Source: an uncultured Dehalococcoidaceae bacterium (GTDB taxonomy: Bacteria; Chloroflexota; Dehalococcoidia; UBA2979). Taken from it: a stretch of 64,000 bases of DNA. The stretch is from positions 27,603 through 91,602 of the forward strand of contig CAZMCK010000002.1 in the NCBI GenBank assembly GCA_964565075.1, written 5' to 3'. Positions 21,410 to 60,085 of the stretch are shown here, piece after piece. The notes beneath the pieces were generated by a model. The model was not told the DNA's origin. It did not search any database and saw nothing but the letters and a program-made list of their open reading frames with translations. The position numbers and the translations under genes are program-made. The first letter of the stretch is position 1. Every line of letters begins with the position of its first letter.

Positions 21410-21766
21410 TGGGGACGAAAGGGGTCGACAGCGGTTAACGGACACGGTTTGCGGGTCGAGGCGCCACCAACCTCGTAAAACAGGTGGCACCTTCATAACA
21501 GGCGATAACGAACTCGCCCTCGCCGCTTAGACAGCGGTGACGTTGTCCCCGGCTCTCGCCTGGCGAGCCGGGAGACAGCGCCGAAATGCCGGGCTGCAAT
21601 CGCGGGCGCGCGTCACAGGCCTCGCGACCAAGACTACTGCGACTGGCCGGCAGCCTCCCTCGTCAGCGCAGGGATGCCGGTGAGAACCCGCCGCTGACTA
21701 CGCCCGTAGCAGATCCGTGACGAAGGCTTGCTGGACGGGGAGTTCAATTCTCCCCCGTCTCCACCA
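21410..21766 (+). ncRNA. ssrA: tmRNA (ssrA)
   Basis: 5' GGGGACGAAAGGGGTCGAC pairs with 3' ...CGTCTCCACCA to form a 7-bp acceptor stem. T-arm GGACGGGGAGTTCAATTCTCCCCCGTC. Internal tag reading frame ...GGC GAT AAC GAA CTC GCC CTC GCC GCT TAG (..NELALAA*). Lies directly after smpB. Confidence 0.85.
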
Positions 21767-38779: not shown

Positions 38780-39994
38780 ATGACGACATCGGAGGCAGGG
38801 GCGCTCCATCTCGGAGCCCCGGAGCGGGTAAGCGCTGTCGAGGCAATCGATGAGTTCCGGCGGGGACGTCCCATCATCATCGTCGACGACGAAGGTCGCG
38901 AGAACGAGGGCGACCTGTGTATCGCCGCGCAGTTCATCGACGCGGAGATGATCGCGTTCATGACGGCCGGTGCGCGCGGGATGATGTGCGTCGCCATGGC
39001 CGGTGAGCGCCTCGACGCGATGAACGTGCCGCTTATGACAGGGAGCAACACGTCACCGCTCTCGAAGCAGTTCACCGTCTCCGTCGAGGCGCGCGACGGC
39101 GTCTCCACCGGAGCGTCGGCCGCCGACCGCGCCCGCACGATCCAGGTGCTCGTCGGCCCCGATTCCACGCCCGAGCAGCTGACACGGCCGGGGCACATCT
39201 TCCCGCTGCGCGCCCGCGACGGCGGGGTGCTCGTGCGCGCCGGCCACACCGAGGCGTCCGTGGACATGGCGCGCCTTGCCGGGTGCACGCCCGCTGCGGT
39301 CATCTGCGAGATGCTTGACGAGGACGGCTCGGTCGCCCGCACCCCGGACCTCGTGGCGTTCGCCCGCGAGCACGACATCAAGATCGTCACCGTCAACGAC
39401 GTGATCGCGCACCGGCTCCGCACCGACACGCTCATCGAGCGCGTCACCGATGCCGGCCTGCCCAGCCGCTTCGGGGACTTCACCGCGGTCGCGTACCGCA
39501 CGCTCGTCGACACTCGCGAGCACATCGCCTTCGTGCTCGGTGACATCTCCACGCCCGAGCCGGTGCTGGTGCGCGTGCACGACCAGTGCGTGACGGGCGA
39601 CGTGTTCCGTTCGCTCAGCTGCGACTGTGGCTACCAGCTGCGAGCCGCCATGAACCTCGTCCGCGAGGCCGGACGGGGCGTCGTCGTCTACCTGTACCAG
39701 CAGGGGAGCGCCCTCTGCCTGCACCCGACGGGCACCCAGCCCGCCGAGGCAAGCGATGGCGAGGCGTCGGCCGCGATCGAGTCGCTCGGGTTGCCCGACT
39801 ACGGGATTGGCATGCAGATCCTCGTCGATCTTGGCCTACGCGAGATGCGGCTCATCACCGACAACCCGGTGAAGCGGTCCGGCCTTGAAGGCTACGGCCT
39901 TGAGATCGCCGAACTCGTCCCCCTCGCCGAGCGTACGCACGCACAGCGCGAGGAGGCGCTCGCCGCCGCCCGCCGGGACGACGAGGGCGCGTAG
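38780..39994 (+). CDS. ribBA: bifunctional DHBP synthase / GTP cyclohydrolase II (RibBA)
   Basis: ATG at 38780, 6 nt after GAGG, within ORF 38753..39994. Motifs RENEGDL, HTEAS and the CDCG zinc site. Confidence 0.9.
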   Translation: MTTSEAGALHLGAPERVSAVEAIDEFRRGRPIIIVDDEGRENEGDLCIAAQFIDAEMIAFMTAGARGMMCVAMAGERLDAMNVPLMTGSNTSPLSKQFTVSVEARDGVSTGASAADRARTIQVLVGPDSTPEQLTRPGHIFPLRARDGGVLVRAGHTEASVDMARLAGCTPAAVICEMLDEDGSVARTPDLVAFAREHDIKIVTVNDVIAHRLRTDTLIERVTDAGLPSRFGDFTAVAYRTLVDTREHIAFVLGDISTPEPVLVRVHDQCVTGDVFRSLSCDCGYQLRAAMNLVREAGRGVVVYLYQQGSALCLHPTGTQPAEASDGEASAAIESLGLPDYGIGMQILVDLGLREMRLITDNPVKRSGLEGYGLEIAELVPLAERTHAQREEALAAARRDDEGA

Positions 39995-40072: not shown

Positions 40073-40591
40073 TCAGTCGATCAGCGCCGCGATCACCTCG
40101 TCGATGACGGCGTCCGCCTTGGCGTAGAGCTCGTCGTCCGTCGCATCCTGGATCGGGTGCTGGACGAACGAGCGCTGCATGGCCGGCAGGCCGAGCGAGA
40201 CCGCCTGCGCCTCGGCGGCGTCGACGAACTCATCGGAGGCCATCATCACCGAGGGAATGCCCTGAATCTCGAACCAGACCGTGTCGTGCACACTGCACGT
40301 CGTGCACGAGCCTCAGTCGGCGAGGGCTTCGATGACGAAGTCCACCTCCTCCATCATCTTGCGCCGCAGCTCGTCCGGCGCGGGCTTGGCGAAGGTCGGC
40401 TTCATGTAGCGGTTGACCTGCACCTCGGGCACGCGCTCGTTCAGCAGCGACTCGATGCGGTCGAGCAGCACGTTGCCGCGCGGCTTGCTGATGTCGAGCA
40501 GGCCGACGGTCCCGGTGATGTGCTCGGGGCGCTTCGTGAGTTGCCGCCCGATCGGTTCTCGTTCATCCGTCGGGTCAAGAATCGTCGTCAT
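40073..40591 (-). CDS. UGSC-family selenoprotein (172 aa); the in-frame TGA at 40313-40315 is decoded as selenocysteine
   Basis: ORFs 40313..40591 and 40073..40291 are in the same frame, separated only by TGA plus seven sense codons. Readthrough gives ...EALAD-U-G-S-C-T-T-C-S-VHDTVWF... Neither ATG nor a ribosome-binding site is present for the second ORF. A SECIS-like hairpin lies directly 3' of the TGA. The ATG at 40591 overlaps the stop of the upstream gene. Confidence 0.65.
40284..40309 (-). promoter_or_regulatory. candidate bacterial SECIS stem-loop
   Basis: On the mRNA the sequence reads UGA GGC UCGUGCAC-GACGUGCAGU-GUGCACGA, an 8-bp stem with a 10-nt loop beginning 4 nt after the UGA. 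Confidence 0.45.
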
Positions 40592-42159
40592 ACGACCTCC
40601 TCGATGATCCTGCTGTCCAGGCCGCTGGCCCAGCCCGGGAAGATCGACGTGAACTTCCCGGCGCCGCTCCCGGCTACCACGATGTGGATGTTATCGGGCG
40701 ATTGGAACTTCGGTATGAGCTCCTCGAGCTGCTCCTCGCTCGGCCCGTCCGGGCCAAAGCTCTCCGGCGGGATGCCGGCGCCTGCCCGCTCGTCGATGAG
40801 GAGCTCACGGACCGGCCGGTGCGTGAGCTCCCAGAGCCGTTGCTGGAGCTGCGCCCGCGTCCAGCCGTCCCTCGAGATGGTGTCGACGTGCTCGGGGCAG
40901 ATCACCATGAGCACCTCGCCCGACCTCGATCGCGGGTGCCCGATCGCCTGCAACGACATGGCGAGGCTGCCCGCGAGCGCCTCCGCCGTGCGCGATGTCT
41001 GGTCGACGCACACCAGTGGCCCCGGCGAGGCCGGGAAGACCGAGACCACGCTCTCCGTGGCGTCGTAGCCATGCCCGGCGTGGAACGGCTCCCAGGGGCT
41101 GGCCTCCTCGCGCTCTGCGAACGCGAGCGTGAACTTCGCCGGCGACCCGAGCATCGAGCGCTCGGTGCCGCCGGGTTTGGCCCCGCCCACGTTGCGCAGC
41201 ACGAGCCGGACGGCGCGCCCGATGGTCGCGTTCGCGCGGTTGCCCTGCCCGAGCGCGCCCAGGCCTGAGTTCATCCTGATGCGGTCCCGGATCGGCCCGT
41301 TCACGATGACGGCGGGCGAAGCGCCCATCGTCGTGGCCATCACGCCGTGTGCGTTGAACTGCTCGGTGCAGACGGCCTCGACGGCGGCGAGGACGACCGG
41401 GAGGTACTCGGGCTTGCACCCGGCGAGCACCGCGTTGATCGCGATCTTCTCGACCGTCGCCTCGCCCATGTTGGGCGGCACCACGGCGACCACCTCCTGC
41501 GCGTCGCGGCGGGTGCCGCCGAGCATCCGCAGCACGCGCTCCGGGCTCGGGGCCACGACAGGGAGCCCGTCCGTGAAGCCCTGGTCGAACATGAACTCGT
41601 CGATGTCGTCGGCGCTCCCCACCTCGATGCGCCGCGCGCGCAGCGGGCTGCCCTCGGCCTCGGCGGCGAGCCGCTCGGCGATGCCGGGCTCGAGGGTGCG
41701 CGAGCCGCAGCCGGGCTGCGATATCGGGTAGCGCTCCCAGTCGACATCGCCGGCCTCTGTATCGGAGAGGTCGGCGAGCCGGCCGTAGAGTGCGCGCCAG
41801 TCCTCGCGCCCGAAGCCGACGAAGCGGTCGACCTCGGCGCCCTCGCCGTCGGTGAGGATCACGGTCGGCACCGTCTCGAGGTCGTAGTTGTACGAGACCG
41901 CAAGCTCGGAGTCGTCGAGCAACGGGAGCGTCAGGTCGTGGCGGTCGACGAGGATGGCGTTGCCCTCGGCCTCCTGGCCGATCGCGAGCACGTCGACGGC
42001 GCTACCGAAGGCGCGGTGCGCGCCCTCGATGAGCGGCATCGAGGTGCCGCATGTCGGGCAGTCCTCCTTGACGAAGGCCAGGAGCGTCGGGCGGCCGGTC
42101 GGGAACGCGCGTTCCTCGCTGCGCTGGTCCAGCAGTTCGAAGCCGGGTAGCTCGGTCAC
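40588..42159 (-). CDS. thioredoxin-fold (CPTC) N-terminal domain fused to a large uncharacterised domain; translationally coupled to the selenoprotein gene
   Basis: 523 aa. N-terminal ~110 aa thioredoxin-like with CPTCG. The remainder (...GLPVVAPSPERV...AINAVLAGC...) is not recognised. Its TGA stop overlaps the ATG of the downstream gene. Confidence 0.7.
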   Translation of the reverse strand: MTELPGFELLDQRSEERAFPTGRPTLLAFVKEDCPTCGTSMPLIEGAHRAFGSAVDVLAIGQEAEGNAILVDRHDLTLPLLDDSELAVSYNYDLETVPTVILTDGEGAEVDRFVGFGREDWRALYGRLADLSDTEAGDVDWERYPISQPGCGSRTLEPGIAERLAAEAEGSPLRARRIEVGSADDIDEFMFDQGFTDGLPVVAPSPERVLRMLGGTRRDAQEVVAVVPPNMGEATVEKIAINAVLAGCKPEYLPVVLAAVEAVCTEQFNAHGVMATTMGASPAVIVNGPIRDRIRMNSGLGALGQGNRANATIGRAVRLVLRNVGGAKPGGTERSMLGSPAKFTLAFAEREEASPWEPFHAGHGYDATESVVSVFPASPGPLVCVDQTSRTAEALAGSLAMSLQAIGHPRSRSGEVLMVICPEHVDTISRDGWTRAQLQQRLWELTHRPVRELLIDERAGAGIPPESFGPDGPSEEQLEELIPKFQSPDNIHIVVAGSGAGKFTSIFPGWASGLDSRIIEEVV

Positions 42160-42239: not shown

Positions 42240-42644
42240 TCAGGTCCGCGCGTCGATGCGGTCCATCTCGCCGGGCCACTCGAGGAGCCGCTCGTCGGCG
42301 GTCAGCAGCCGGCAGTCGTCGAGCGTGAGCGCCGTGGCGGCGATGATCCGGTCGGCGGGGTCGCCGTGCATGTCGGGGATCTCGCCCGCGAGCGTGGCGA
42401 TCTCAGCGGTCACCCCGACCTCTCCCAGGCCGGTGGCGCGCAGGCCCGCTCGCCAGCCCAGCACGTCGCGCGTCACCCCCACGCGGCCCTTGCGCTGCAG
42501 CATCGCGACTTCCCAGAACGTAATGGTTGAGACCGCGGCCTCGCCGTCCGGCCAGGCCCGATCGAGCAATGCGCGAGCCCGCCGCCCCAGGTCACGGGTG
42601 TCGAGATGCATCCAGACCAGCACATGGGTATCGAGCAGGATCAC
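42240..42644 (-). CDS. vapC: PIN-domain toxin (VapC-like)
   Basis: 134 aa starting MILLDTHVLVW, PIN fold. Confidence 0.8.
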   Translation of the reverse strand: MILLDTHVLVWMHLDTRDLGRRARALLDRAWPDGEAAVSTITFWEVAMLQRKGRVGVTRDVLGWRAGLRATGLGEVGVTAEIATLAGEIPDMHGDPADRIIAATALTLDDCRLLTADERLLEWPGEMDRIDART

Positions 42645-42653
42645 GGGCGCCGG

Positions 42654-42977
42654 TCAGGGATTGAGCACGCGGTCCGGGTCGGCAAGCACGTCTATCTCGT
42701 CCTCATCCATGGGGCTGATGATGTCCCCGAGGATGCGGATCTGACCCTTGCCGGCGCCCCACGGCGCCTTGCGCGGGTGCTGATACGGCGTCAACTTCGC
42801 CACAGGCTCCCCCCGCTTCATGATGATGACCTCCCGGCCGGTCTCGGCGACCTCATCCATGAGTTGCAGGCATTTTGCCTTGAACTCGGACGCCTTGATG
42901 AACCGCCGCGTGCTGTACACGCCAACGAACTCCCTGATCAAGGAGCCCCTCGGTTCCTCTTGCTCAACCATGGTCAT
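42654..42977 (-). CDS. Phd/YefM-family antitoxin
   Basis: ORF 42654..43004; start could be M1, M10 or M12. Phd/YefM-like (...YSTRRFIKASEFKAKCLQLMDEVAETGREVIIMKRGEPVAKLTP). Confidence 0.7.
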   Translation of the reverse strand: MTMVEQEEPRGSLIREFVGVYSTRRFIKASEFKAKCLQLMDEVAETGREVIIMKRGEPVAKLTPYQHPRKAPWGAGKGQIRILGDIISPMDEDEIDVLADPDRVLNP

Positions 42978-43089
42978 GACTATAGTGCCATCTCCCGGGG
43001 TCATGCAAGCCCCCGCGCCACCGTGCGGAGCCTAGCTCCGGGGGCTGGTAGGCTCGTTTGAACCTCTGACGAGACTGGAGCTTTCGCGA

Positions 43090-45371: not shown

Positions 45372-46649
45372 CTAGCCGAACGCGCCAGCCTCGCGCAGCG
45401 AGGCGATCTCCTCCGGTGTGAGGCCGTGCTCCGCCAGTACCTCGTCGGTGTGGCCCCCGAGGGGCGGCGACGGCCGGTCCGTGCCCGTCGGAGCGTTCGT
45501 CATGCGCAGGATCGGGCCGACCAGCTGTTCGGGGCCCGTGAGGGGGTGGTCGATGTCCACCATGTAGCCCATCGCCTGCACCTGCGGGTCTTCCGACATC
45601 TCCTCGGGGAAGTTCACCTTGGTTGCCGGCGCCCCCTGCGCGTCGAGGAGCTCGATCCACTCGTCCATGGTCTTGGTGCGGTACAGCTGCCTGACGCGCT
45701 CCTGGAACGCCTGCGCCTTCGCCTCCCACTCCGGGTCGAGGGCGTCGAAGTCCGGGTCCTCCATGGGATCCTCGCCGGTCAGTCCCAGCGCCTCGCGGAT
45801 CTGCGCCTGGTTGCGAGGGGTGAGCGCACCGACGACGATCGCGCCGTCCTGCACCACGTAGGTGCCGTAGTACGTCAGGAACGCCGTCGCGATCGCGCGC
45901 TGGCCCTCGTGGATGTCCATCAGCTCCTGGTAGTTGGCGCCTGCCTGCTGCGCGGCGGTGAGGGCCTCCATCATCGGGTCCCGCGTGATTGCGTCCTGCA
46001 CGGGCACTCGCCCGACGGAGGCGCCGAGCAGCGACAGCGCCGAGTTGAGCAGCGAGGTCTGGATGAACTCGCCCTGCCCCGTCAGCTCGCGGCGGAACAG
46101 CGCGGCGCACACGCCCATCGCCATTGCCAGTCCCGTGCTCATGTCGCCGATCGCGATCGACATCATCTGCGGCGCGCCGTGCTCGTCGAGCTTGTGGTTG
46201 TTCGCCATCAGGCCCGAGTAGCCCTGCGAGACCACGTCGGAGCCGGAGCGCTCGGCGCTCGGCCCCTCGGTGCCGAAGCCGGTGCTGTCGACGTAGACGA
46301 GGTCCGGGCGGAACTGCCGCAGCGTGTCGTAGTCCACCTTCAGGCGCTTCGAGACGCCGGGGCGGGCGTTGATGATGAAGACGTCGTAGTCCTTGATGAT
46401 GCGGTGCACCAGCCCCTGCGCGTCGGGGCTCTGGAGGTTGAGCACCAGCCCCCGCTTCCCGCGGTTCACGACGTGGAAGAACTTCGACTCGTTCGGGACG
46501 ACGGCGCCCAGGATGCGGGTGCTGTCGCCGTCCGGTGACTCGACCTTGAGGACGTCGGCCCCGAGGTCGGCGAGCATCATCCCGCCGTACGGCGCCGCCA
46601 GGATCTGTGACACCTCGAACACCTTGATGCCTTCAAGTGGACCACCCAC
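45372..46649 (-). CDS. CoA-transferase family III (CaiB/BaiF) protein, single-domain
   Basis: ORF 45372..46832. The start is placed at the GTG for V62 (8 nt after GGGGGG), since a strong hairpin upstream (46672..46704) must precede the gene. N-terminal GPLEGIKVFEVSQILAAPYGGMMLADLGADVLKVE. Confidence 0.8.
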   Translation of the reverse strand: MGGPLEGIKVFEVSQILAAPYGGMMLADLGADVLKVESPDGDSTRILGAVVPNESKFFHVVNRGKRGLVLNLQSPDAQGLVHRIIKDYDVFIINARPGVSKRLKVDYDTLRQFRPDLVYVDSTGFGTEGPSAERSGSDVVSQGYSGLMANNHKLDEHGAPQMMSIAIGDMSTGLAMAMGVCAALFRRELTGQGEFIQTSLLNSALSLLGASVGRVPVQDAITRDPMMEALTAAQQAGANYQELMDIHEGQRAIATAFLTYYGTYVVQDGAIVVGALTPRNQAQIREALGLTGEDPMEDPDFDALDPEWEAKAQAFQERVRQLYRTKTMDEWIELLDAQGAPATKVNFPEEMSEDPQVQAMGYMVDIDHPLTGPEQLVGPILRMTNAPTGTDRPSPPLGGHTDEVLAEHGLTPEEIASLREAGAFG

Positions 46650-46671
46650 GATGCGCACCCCCCGGATTGCA

Positions 46672-46704
46672 AGCGGGGCGGGTGCTTGAGCACCCGCCCC
46701 GTCG
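46672..46704. terminator. 13-bp-stem hairpin after the rhodanese gene
   Basis: GCGGGGCGGGTGC-TTGA-GCACCCGCCCCG(C). Confidence 0.5.
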
Positions 46705-46729
46705 AGCGTGTGGCTTCGGCCGTATCGTA

Positions 46730-47908
46730 CTAGGACTCGATGGGCGTGTCTGTGCGGTTGCCCCACTCGGTCCAGGAGCCATCGTAGACCTTCACGTTCT
46801 CGTAGCCGAGCAGATCGCTCAGCACGAACCACGTGTGGGTCGCACGCACGGCCGTCTGGCAGAGCGTGTAGATGGTCTTGCCGCCCACAACGCCCTCGCC
46901 CTCGTAGAGCTCGCGGAGCTCATCGGCGGGGAGGAACGTGCCGTCCTCGGCCAGCGCGCGGCCCCAGTCGACGTTGACCGACTCGGGGATGTGGCCGCCG
47001 CGGTCAGCACGGACGTCACGCCCGGCGTACTCCTCGGCCGACCTGGCGTCGCAGACCAGCGACGAGGGGTCCTCGATCTGATCCACGATCTCCTGCCAGC
47101 CGGCGATGATCGCCTCGTTCGGAGCCGCGCTGAACGCGTACTCCGCAGCCGTGGGCGACGGCACGTCGGTGCTCACCTCGCGGCCCTCTGACTGCCAGAG
47201 CGGGAAGTCGCCGTCGAGCAGCCGCACATCCGCGTGCCCGTAGACCGCGAGCACCCACACGGCGCGCGAAGCCCAGATCGAGCCCCTGGCGTCGTAGAAG
47301 ACCAGCGTGTGGTCGGGCGTCACGCCGAATGATGCGAGCGATGCCGCCACTTCCTCGGCGGGCGGGATCAGGCCCGCGACGCCGTCGATCTCCTTCTGGA
47401 AGACCGCACCGGCCTGCATCCGGACCGCGCCCGGGATGTGGCCCTCGCCGTACTGTTCCTCGTTGCGGAGGTCGAACAGCAGCACCCTGTCGTTGTCGAG
47501 GTTGTCCTCGATCCACTGGGTGGTCACGAGGCGGCTCGTGTTCGCGTAGCCCCGGTCCTCGAGGCCCGTAGCCTGGGCGACCCCGGCGTCGTCCGCGTCA
47601 CCCTCCTCGGAGGTGGTGGCGGCGGTGTCGTCCGCGTCGTCGTCCTCCTCGGTGGCGGCGGCGGTGTCATCCGCGTCGTCGTCCTCCTCGGTGGCGGCGG
47701 CCGTGTCGGTGGCGTCGTCGGAGTCGTCGGTGGCCGCGGCCTGCTGCGTGGCGGGCGTCGCCTGCGTGGTCGTCGCCGCGTCGTCGTCATCGTCGTCGCC
47801 GCACGCGATGAGCAGCGCCGAGGAGGCGATCACCAGCAGCGCAAGCAGCGCGGCACCGCGTCCGAGCAGGCCCCAGGCGGGCCTCGTTCGTACTTCTGTT
47901 GCCATCAT
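46730..47908 (-). CDS. secreted two-domain rhodanese (thiosulfate/3-mercaptopyruvate sulfurtransferase) lipoprotein
   Basis: 392 aa with lipobox LLIACG, an acidic linker containing a tandem TAAATEEDDDADD repeat, and two rhodanese domains with the catalytic Cys (CQTAVRA). Confidence 0.8.
   Translation of the reverse strand: MMATEVRTRPAWGLLGRGAALLALLVIASSALLIACGDDDDDDAATTTQATPATQQAAATDDSDDATDTAAATEEDDDADDTAAATEEDDDADDTAATTSEEGDADDAGVAQATGLEDRGYANTSRLVTTQWIEDNLDNDRVLLFDLRNEEQYGEGHIPGAVRMQAGAVFQKEIDGVAGLIPPAEEVAASLASFGVTPDHTLVFYDARGSIWASRAVWVLAVYGHADVRLLDGDFPLWQSEGREVSTDVPSPTAAEYAFSAAPNEAIIAGWQEIVDQIEDPSSLVCDARSAEEYAGRDVRADRGGHIPESVNVDWGRALAEDGTFLPADELRELYEGEGVVGGKTIYTLCQTAVRATHTWFVLSDLLGYENVKVYDGSWTEWGNRTDTPIES
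47620..47700. repeat. roughly 39-bp tandem direct repeat (x2) inside the rhodanese gene
   Basis: A GTCGTCGTCCTCCTCGGTGGCGGCGGC(G/C)GTGTC unit repeated on the + strand, encoding the duplicated acidic linker TAAATEEDDDADD. Confidence 0.6.
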
Positions 47909-59086: not shown

Positions 59087-60085
59087 ATGCAGGCCCACCA
59101 GCTCACCCCCGGCGGCGGCATCGACGGCGTCACACAGGTCACGCTGGACGACCCCGAGCCCGCCGCCGACGAGGTCGTCGTCCGCGTGCGCGCCACCTCG
59201 CTCAACTACCGCGACCTGATGCTCACGCAGGGCAACCGCGAGGCCGTCATCCCGCTCTCCGACGGCGCCGGCGAGGTCGTCGCGGTCGGCGACGAGGTCA
59301 CCCGCTTCGCCGTCGGTGACCGGGTGACGAGCTGCTTCTTCCTCGACTGGCTCGACGGCGACGGGACACCGGCGAACACGCGCCGCGCGCTCGGCGGCGC
59401 AGACACCAACGGCACGCTCGCCGAGCTGGTCGCGCTGCCCGAGCGCGCCGTCGTCGCCACTCCGGCGCACATGACGGACGAGGAGGCCGCGACGCTCTCG
59501 TGCGCCGCGCTGACCGCGTGGTGCTCGATGTTCCCGGTGGCCGGGCTGCAGCCGGGGTCGAGCGTGCTGCTGCTCGGCACGGGGGGCGTCTCCATCGCCG
59601 GGCTGCAACTCGCCGCGATTGCGGGGGTGCGCAGCATCATTACGTCGAGCAGCGACGAGAAGCTGGCGCGCGCCCGCGAGCACGGCGCGGACCACACCAT
59701 CAACTACGTCGACGACGACAATTGGGGCCGCACGGTCCGTGACCTCACGGACGGCCGGGGCGTCGACCTGACGCTCGAGGTGGGCGGTGAGGGCACGTTC
59801 GCGAAGTCGATGACCGCGACGCGCTTCGGCGGGGACATCGCGCTGATCGGCGGGCTCGCGCGTGAGGAGTCGGACGAGACGCAGGTGCCCCTCGTCGGCC
59901 GCGGGCTGCGGGCGAGCCGCATCTACGTCGGCAGCCGCGCGATGTTCGAGCAGATGAACCGCGCGCTGGCGCTGCGCGAGGTCCACCCGGTGATCGACCG
60001 TGTCTTCGAGTTTGGCGAGGCGCGCGAGGCGTATCGCTACCTGGAGTCGCAGCGGCACTTCGGCAAGGTTGTGATCCGCGTCTGA
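59087..60085 (+). CDS. zinc-binding alcohol dehydrogenase / quinone oxidoreductase (MDR family)
   Basis: ATG at 59087 after GAGGAGG, within ORF 59003..60085. MDR Rossmann motif LLLGTGGVSIAGLQLA. Confidence 0.85.
   Translation: MQAHQLTPGGGIDGVTQVTLDDPEPAADEVVVRVRATSLNYRDLMLTQGNREAVIPLSDGAGEVVAVGDEVTRFAVGDRVTSCFFLDWLDGDGTPANTRRALGGADTNGTLAELVALPERAVVATPAHMTDEEAATLSCAALTAWCSMFPVAGLQPGSSVLLLGTGGVSIAGLQLAAIAGVRSIITSSSDEKLARAREHGADHTINYVDDDNWGRTVRDLTDGRGVDLTLEVGGEGTFAKSMTATRFGGDIALIGGLAREESDETQVPLVGRGLRASRIYVGSRAMFEQMNRALALREVHPVIDRVFEFGEAREAYRYLESQRHFGKVVIRV

Follow-up and report, generated by a model that had tools for sequence, protein, structure and literature searches.

A 64-kb window of DNA (the whole stretch analysed, 64,000 nucleotides of contig CAZMCK010000002.1 from an uncultured Dehalococcoidaceae bacterium) contains two short minus-strand open reading frames (ORFs), 40313..40591 and 40073..40291, that very probably form a single selenoprotein gene of the UGSC family. 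According to this reading, the in-frame UGA between them would be decoded as selenocysteine (Sec) at codon 93 through a small downstream hairpin and SelB, and the product would work as one unit with the 523-amino acid (aa) protein encoded immediately upstream. In this partner a thioredoxin domain is fused to a large domain that, judged by description, is probably the 'Unknown_1' domain of an earlier survey. Coordinates are collected in Table 1.

Results

Two listed ORFs constitute one UGSC gene

The minus-strand ORF that begins at the ATG at 40591 terminates in TGA at 40315-40313. The same frame continues through seven sense codons (G S C T T C S) to a GTG at 40291, which is the nominal start of the second listed ORF, so that the UGA is the sole interruption of one 172-codon gene; re-reading the sequence agreed with the initial annotation on this layout. 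The read-through product is ...FVIEALAD-U-GSCTTCSVHDTVWFEIQG..., its Sec-containing segment beginning U-G-S-C-T-T-C-S-VHDTVWFEIQG, and the peptide across the Sec position reads ...MMEEVDFVIEALAD-U-GSCTTCSVHDTVWFEIQG... The ATG at 40591 has GAGGAGG upstream. The second ORF was found, as claimed, to have neither an ATG nor a ribosome-binding site, and its GTG is the codon of a conserved Val/Leu/Met at position 101. Codon-position guanine-plus-cytosine (GC) content is 0.67/0.37/0.91 before the TGA and 0.66/0.41/0.94 after it, and stops interrupt both alternative frames of the second half, indicating that coding continues in frame across the TGA.

For profile searches of the 172-residue product, the U was replaced by C. 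NCBIfam NF041046 'UGSC family (seleno)protein' matched with 164.1 bits (cutoff 125; profile positions 4-146 of 147) and Pfam PF24696 with 167.5 bits (cutoff 25; positions 1-170 of 172), both matches spanning the UGA. The U-G-S-C motif sits at the conserved column of the family (...EALAD-U-GSCTTCSVHD), and residues G94, S95, C96, C99, H102 and D103, the UxxCxxC motif included, are invariant in the aligned UGSC genes. Judged by these matches, 40073..40591 is a UGSC-family selenoprotein gene and an ordinary member of a known family. The family had thus been named correctly at the outset; the idea that it lay hidden was mistaken, because UGSC has long been listed as an abundant family and is covered by dedicated NCBIfam and Pfam models. 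Weak Pfam matches of 26 UGSC members at E <= 10 included nothing consistent, and a UGSC profile search against PDB sequences gave no meaningful match.

For comparison, an alignment of the 523-aa family was used to scan genomes, each species being represented once, and this yielded 80 loci (here and below, loci are given as L numbers and database proteins as P numbers) spanning Chloroflexota, Gamma-, Alpha- and Betaproteobacteria, Binatota, Acidobacteriota, Actinomycetota, Myxococcota and others. Among the UGSC genes that neighbour these partner homologs, the aligned Sec codon is TGA in 73 of 74 and TGC in the remaining one (L056, from Lysobacter). Wherever both halves were detected, they share a reading frame, with exactly one codon between them (74 UGSC loci), and Cys-form homologs align straight across the UGA position. 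Full-length relatives with Cys at the Sec column include P0007 and P0017 among the best 120 database relatives; P0308 is a further Cys form. With an in-frame TGA and conserved coding sequence on each side of it at 73 of the 74 related loci, which represent many phyla, the arrangement is far beyond chance.

If the TGA were instead a genuine stop, the locus would encode two proteins, one of 92 aa and one of 72 aa with its own start. Gene callers follow this reading both at the window locus and in a 74% identical relative, and most database entries do end at ...LAD: roughly 100 of the best 120 relatives are 94-112 aa, and those examined stop exactly there. However, the second ORF is devoid of an ATG and a Shine-Dalgarno sequence, its supposed GTG start is a conserved internal codon, the family hidden Markov models (HMMs) span the junction, and the Cys-form orthologs are continuous. 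The invariant one-codon spacing in frame, combined with TGA in 73 of 74 loci, refutes both a real stop followed by a second protein and a nonsense mutation, and we give the two-protein alternative virtually no credence. The single-gene reading also bears on the prediction that automatic annotation would miscall the locus, which holds in part: Prodigal-type calls do split it, giving 92-aa and 72-aa products in the 74% identical relative, whereas the NCBI record for the UGSC gene of L084 gives a 174-residue product, the read-through length.

The relative in question (L082:10001-15456, on a 3.48-Mb contig; 74% identity refers to the partner) shows partial synteny with the window, comprising the partner, UGSC and a convergent ribBA, with a luciferase-like monooxygenase and a short-chain dehydrogenase/reductase (SDR) inserted into this order. 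Its 92-aa and 72-aa UGSC ORFs both match PF24696.

In some full-length UGSC entries the Sec column is occupied by G, W or R (P0001, P0002, P0004, P0005, P0006, P0060); GGA, TGG and CGA are each one substitution from TGA. Translation of TGA under an alternative code was ruled out as the source for P0001, in which the codon is a real sense codon on an error-prone or decaying contig. At L083:2501-3043 the Gly at the Sec column is encoded by a real sense codon and the adjoining partner gene is frameshifted, which suggests an assembly error or decay.

A conserved hairpin lies immediately downstream of the UGA

With the U of the UGA as nucleotide (nt) 1, the RNAalifold consensus of 67 distinct sequences is CGUGC-AGUNU-GCAYG, in which nt 17-21 pair with nt 27-31. 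Each of the five core pairs is intact in 67/67 sequences and the loop nucleotides G23 and U24 are invariant; one pair varies between G-C and G-U, and a compensatory change from G-C to A-U occurs once, in L073. A G15-C33 pair could extend the window's hairpin to 40301-40283. Folded in isolation, the element has an energy of -7.4 kcal/mol in the window and -5.6 to -10.9 kcal/mol across the Sec forms.

The synonymous-codon entropy of conserved residues is typically 0.6-2.3 bits in the 71 Sec-form genes. It falls to zero in two sense codons only, Cys99 (TGC in 71/71) and Ser100 (AGT in 68/68, although six Ser codons are possible), which lie 18-24 nt past the UGA. At codons 98 and 101 the third position is fixed as G, with one exception at codon 98. 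In the Cys form L056 the frozen codons are lost and the segment does not fold. It is mainly these frozen synonymous sites, and their loss in the Cys form, that argue for a constraint at the RNA level. The upper stem-loop of the Escherichia coli fdhF selenocysteine insertion sequence (SECIS) occupies nt 15-31; its loop contains G23, which makes contact with SelB, and U24 (PMC8659212). By analogy with that element, the nt 17-31 hairpin would present G23-U24 to SelB.

The initial annotation had proposed a different candidate, an 8-bp hairpin spanning nt 7-32. It is present in the window, and it and the conserved hairpin are mutually exclusive. Were it the functional SECIS in this organism, two properties would fit: it is the minimum free energy (MFE) structure of the window sequence (-14.8 kcal/mol for nt 1-37), and its inner five pairs (nt 10-14/25-29) are mostly kept among relatives. 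Its energy, however, is not better than expected by chance at 70% GC (z = -0.58 for 61 nt, -1.08 for 37 nt). The three lower pairs fail to form in 20-54 of the 67 sequences, and 76% of its cells are paired, which equals the value for column shuffles; these counts rule it out as a conserved SECIS. It also leaves the frozen third positions of codons 98-101 unexplained. The ribosomal mRNA channel covers the stretch just 3' of the A-site codon, and the 5' arm of this hairpin, 4 nt past the UGA, would lie inside the ribosome with the UGA in the A site. We therefore regard a SECIS role for the 8-bp hairpin in this organism as unlikely and favour the nt 17-31 hairpin.

The partner protein fuses a thioredoxin domain to a large domain

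The ATG of the UGSC gene overlaps the stop codon of the 523-aa gene, and the product of the latter carries a CPTCG motif (C34-P-T-C37-G) in a thioredoxin-like domain, both as first described. The N-terminal domain has the thioredoxin fold together with the CxxC active site and is TlpA-like. It scores far below the cutoffs of the equivalog models examined (ResA NF002854, 30.4 bits against 170; MauD, 26 against 189; StoA, 20 against 210) and barely above the threshold of Pfam AhpC-TSA (27.0 vs 26). More than 8000 homologs of the 523-aa protein are annotated as TlpA/redoxin only.

The initial annotation could not place the large C-terminal domain, and the searches ended in the same way. In a comparison of the full 523-aa model with PDB folds the thioredoxin domain alone was matched, and the C-terminal domain, also when modelled by itself, had no Pfam, PDB-sequence or convincing fold match. 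A test for the Class I (iron-sulphur) fumarate hydratase or iron-sulphur hydro-lyase fold, which would call for a global fold match together with three conserved Cys cluster ligands, was negative. Searched exhaustively with phmmer, 1.84 billion cluster representatives yielded 5303 relatives of the partner family, in the form of standalone proteins (~345 aa), thioredoxin-fused proteins (~525 aa), tandem proteins (~715 aa) and fusions to UGSC in both orders. Across these architectures the C-terminal domain has a single universal cysteine, Cys248, located in MAGC[KR]PEY. Proteins of ~715 aa with two tandem C-terminal domains include P0257, P0274, P0281, P0306, P0325 and P0334. At L085:4001-6154 a tandem-domain gene adjoins a gene for an SBP_bac_5 solute-binding protein; the genes called on the ~500 bases of contig beyond the tandem-domain gene include no UGSC gene.

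UGSC and its partner are linked and fused

The UGSC gene lies directly downstream of the partner homolog, on the same strand, in 74 of the 80 loci, usually overlapping it or within ~100 nt. A few loci (L007, L037, L038, L080 and also L012) gave no nearby UGSC gene by tblastn or by the UGSC HMM, with which the loci lacking a tblastn match were searched; two of the UGSC-less partner loci belong to Vicinamibacterales. In L071 the UGSC gene (L071:12313-12816) stands ~5 kb from the partner homolog.

The two proteins also occur as single polypeptides. P0308 and P0338 are fusions of UGSC followed by the C-terminal domain, P0308 being a Cys form (GDCGSCTSW), and P0267 and P0282 start just past the UGA position. 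In the opposite order, P0319 and P0362 consist of the C-terminal domain and the N-terminal half of UGSC, with P0319 ending in ...LALAD, the UGA position. A UGSC gene containing an in-frame TGA follows, and overlaps, a standalone C-terminal domain gene in L084. The occurrence of both standalone and fused architectures indicates that the core module is the C-terminal domain plus UGSC and that the thioredoxin domain is an add-on. From this pattern of obligate linkage or fusion, the two proteins are predicted to be one functional unit; the coupling suggested by the initial annotation is hence backed by 74/80 adjacency and by fusions in both orders, more strongly than the window by itself allowed.

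In 11 loci (L015, L017, L023, L027, L029, L030, L031, L033, L034, L054 and L066) selA (TIGR00474, 590 bits), selB (TIGR00475, 262 bits) and tRNA-Sec immediately precede the partner gene. L034 comes from the cultured strain Sulfitobacter sp. M05. In two Henriciella loci an Ndh-SelD fusion (TIGR03169 + TIGR00476) additionally lies directly downstream of UGSC, and with selA-selB-tRNA-Sec upstream these constitute a complete Sec island centred on the pair. Such an arrangement might mean that the pair serves selenium handling itself, for example by delivering or reducing selenium for SelD, rather than acting as a general substrate-reducing enzyme; its position after selA-selB-tRNA-Sec in 11 loci, and before Ndh-SelD in two of those, would be expected. 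Sec machinery is, however, commonly clustered with its main client selenoprotein, and co-transfer with a client explains the adjacency equally well. Moreover, no sel gene is nearby in ~63 other loci or in the window, and Cys forms exist, making a selenium-handling role the less likely one; we rate it as improbable.

Surroundings of the pair

Conservation does not extend to a third gene, and the commonest neighbour family was found in 17 of 81 loci. Genes for acyl-coenzyme A (CoA) dehydrogenase, family III CoA-transferase, SDR and thiolase/OB-fold proteins each lie near the pair in 12-17 of 81 loci; neighbours from these families are present in the window (45375-46832, minus strand) and in L001, L004, L005, L006, L021, L026, L045, L047 and others, with further examples at L083:3026-4195 and L084:5577-7306. 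These recurrent neighbours may or may not hint at CoA-thioester metabolism, such genes being abundant in these genomes. The window neighbours of the pair are a Phd/PIN toxin-antitoxin pair, a major facilitator superfamily transporter, an aldo/keto reductase and a convergent ribBA. The toxin-antitoxin pair is outside the conserved module.

Between the convergent genes, an inverted repeat overlaps the ribBA stop (ribBA ends at 39994 and UGSC at 40073). A consensus terminator scan did not list it because it is without a T-run; it probably forms the transcript-end hairpin of the two-gene operon and may be bidirectional.

ARAGORN reported an 89-nt 'tRNA-Thr (ggt)' at 59348-59436 on the minus strand, which was considered as a tRNA-Sec and rejected: it has no Rfam tRNA match at E <= 10, lies in GC-rich coding-like DNA and is almost certainly a false positive. 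A transfer-messenger RNA gene is present at 21411-21766 on the plus strand (Rfam, 134 bits; tag peptide GDNELALAA).

Table 1. Positions of the UGSC gene, its partner and associated features (window coordinates unless a locus is named)
Feature	Position	Strand	Detail or basis
UGSC selenoprotein gene (predicted)	40073..40591	minus	172 codons, Sec = codon 93, stop TGA 40075-40073
In-frame UGA read as Sec (U of U-G-S-C-T-T-C motif)	40313..40315	minus	aligned-codon conservation
Conserved SECIS-like hairpin CGUGC-AGUGU-GCACG	40285..40299	minus	nt 17-31; G23 = 40293, U24 = 40292
8-bp hairpin UCGUGCAC-N10-GUGCACGA of the initial annotation	40284..40309	minus	nt 7-32
523-aa partner gene	40588..42159	minus	GTG start 42159, GAGGAG 6 nt upstream
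ATGA overlap of partner stop with UGSC start	40591-40588	minus	sequence
N-terminal thioredoxin-fold domain of partner, residues 1-135	41755..42159	minus	C34-P-T-C37 at 42060-42049
C-terminal ~390-aa domain of partner	40591..41754	minus	Cys248 (MAGCKPEY) at 41418-41416
Inverted repeat, perfect 13 bp, GGGCGCGTAGCAC/GTGCTACGCGCCC, 4-nt loop	39985..40014		between convergent ribBA and UGSC genes
PIN-domain toxin	42240-42644	minus	directly upstream of partner
Phd-family antitoxin	42654-43004	minus	upstream of partner
Compact Sec islands	L015:2476-10431; L023:2515-10389		selA, selB and tRNA-Sec upstream of the pair

Discussion

The results argue for a single UGSC gene with Sec at codon 93 that is coupled to its upstream partner. 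In a possible mechanism for the pair, the large C-terminal domain would bind a substrate and act on it through Cys248. Sec93 and Cys96 of UGSC (UxxC, followed by Cys99) would be the redox-active partner and would form a selenenylsulfide, and the fused thioredoxin domain (C34/C37) would re-reduce the Sec93/Cys96 centre. The data show gene identity, conservation of the Sec codon, constraint on the RNA, and linkage and fusion of the genes; SelB recognition, the substrate and the direction of electron flow in this thiol/selenol relay are inferred.

Several observations weigh against this interpretation. ARAGORN, Rfam and tblastn searches found no selA, selB, selD or tRNA-Sec in the 64-kb window, and for this reason the case for Sec decoding here rests on the conserved UGA and the hairpin. 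Covariation in that hairpin is minimal, amounting to one double change, because the same codons encode conserved amino acids; the competing 8-bp structure is thermodynamically favoured in the window; and the bulged U17 of the E. coli element contrasts with a C17 that pairs with G31 in 67/67 UGSC sequences. On the side of function, gene neighbourhoods vary between loci, the C-terminal domain is without an informative structural or sequence relative, no substrate was identified, and the order of the relay is a proposal.

The first of these observations would also be expected if the locus were a pseudogene or non-functional here, either because the UGA arose by nonsense mutation or because loss of the Sec machinery leaves only a truncated product. 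Relatives in which G, W or R takes the place of Sec, including one beside a frameshifted partner gene, point the same way. However, TGA is the ancestral, conserved state (73/74), the frozen codons and a hairpin identical to the consensus are kept in the window, both genes retain their full length, and the codon-position GC signature is intact past the UGA; furthermore, 64 kb is a small sample of a genome. Loss of function at this locus thus appears highly unlikely, and a working UGSC-partner unit is the reading that we retain.

For annotation, one selenoprotein gene takes the place of two 'hypothetical protein' calls, and this would imply that the organism or a recent ancestor uses selenocysteine. 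The family itself is not new. It has been on record since 2005-2008 (Sargasso Sea and Global Ocean Sampling (GOS), Zhang and Gladyshev). In the GOS metagenome the UGSC-containing protein was represented by 255 Sec and 21 Cys forms, ranked within the top five families by abundance and occurred most often in non-marine samples, and the authors noted its fusion to a conserved domain with a conserved Cys, which they named 'Unknown_1' (PMC2398784). UGSC is listed in later surveys (PMC5029168, PMC9312934), has been found with recoded Sec codons in Geodermatophilaceae (PMC5330540), and appears in a 2026 review, which cites NF041046, among selenoproteins with largely uncharacterized functions (PMC13188914). 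In aquatic metagenomes UGSC ranks among the most abundant selenoprotein families of prokaryotes, yet it has no known function. The literature searched, with incomplete coverage that leaves novelty unproven, does not describe an operon with a thioredoxin-'Unknown_1' partner or the Sec-island arrangement.

What is added here is the obligate partner, the fusions in both orders, a minimal SECIS and the Sec islands, which together make the function experimentally approachable. Further handles are the one universal cysteine of the partner, the optional thioredoxin domain and a cultured carrier with a Sec gene cluster, Sulfitobacter sp. M05 (L034). A broader interpretation, to which we assign slightly less than an even chance, is that 'Unknown_1' and UGSC, with an optional thioredoxin domain, constitute a widespread and undescribed two-component selenoenzyme whose catalytic fold has no solved relative, and that in some Alphaproteobacteria (Henriciella, Phenylobacterium, Sulfitobacter sp. 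M05) it is the client at the centre of a complete, mobile Sec island with the order selA-selB-tRNA-Sec-partner-UGSC-(Ndh-SelD).

Comparison with known systems

The proposed decoding element resembles the E. coli fdhF-type SECIS in being a hairpin within the coding sequence just 3' of the UGA, with G23-U24 in the same register and in the apical loop. Unlike that element, the UGSC hairpin has only 5-6 conserved base pairs; an irregularity occurs at positions 16/32, which form an A16/A32 mismatch in the window and pair as U-A in roughly half of the family.

The partner differs from TlpA/ResA/CcmG-type oxidoreductases in that its thioredoxin domain is fused to a 390-aa domain and in that, by eye only, it is without an apparent N-terminal membrane anchor or signal. 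As a functional analogy only, glycine and proline reductases combine a small selenoprotein (~17-18 kDa) bearing a Sec/Cys pair with a larger protein and a thioredoxin-type reductant. The order of the motif is reversed, UxxC in UGSC versus CxxU in GrdA, and the GRDA, GRDB and PrdB Pfam families (PF04723/PF07355-type) gave no match at E <= 10 to 26 UGSC and 36 partner members.

The closest comparison is with the UGSC family as already known. The window protein shares with it a length of ~170 aa, U-G-S-C at the same column and a predominance of Sec over rare Cys forms (73 vs 1 here), and has no feature that distinguishes it. The fusions found here, which join the C-terminal domain to UGSC in both orders and in some cases are cut at the UGA, agree with the published account of UGSC/'Unknown_1' fusions (PMC2398784, Fig. 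S1A), in which UGSC is joined to a conserved domain bearing a conserved Cys; the window itself differs in carrying separate, translationally coupled genes and an extra thioredoxin domain on the large protein.

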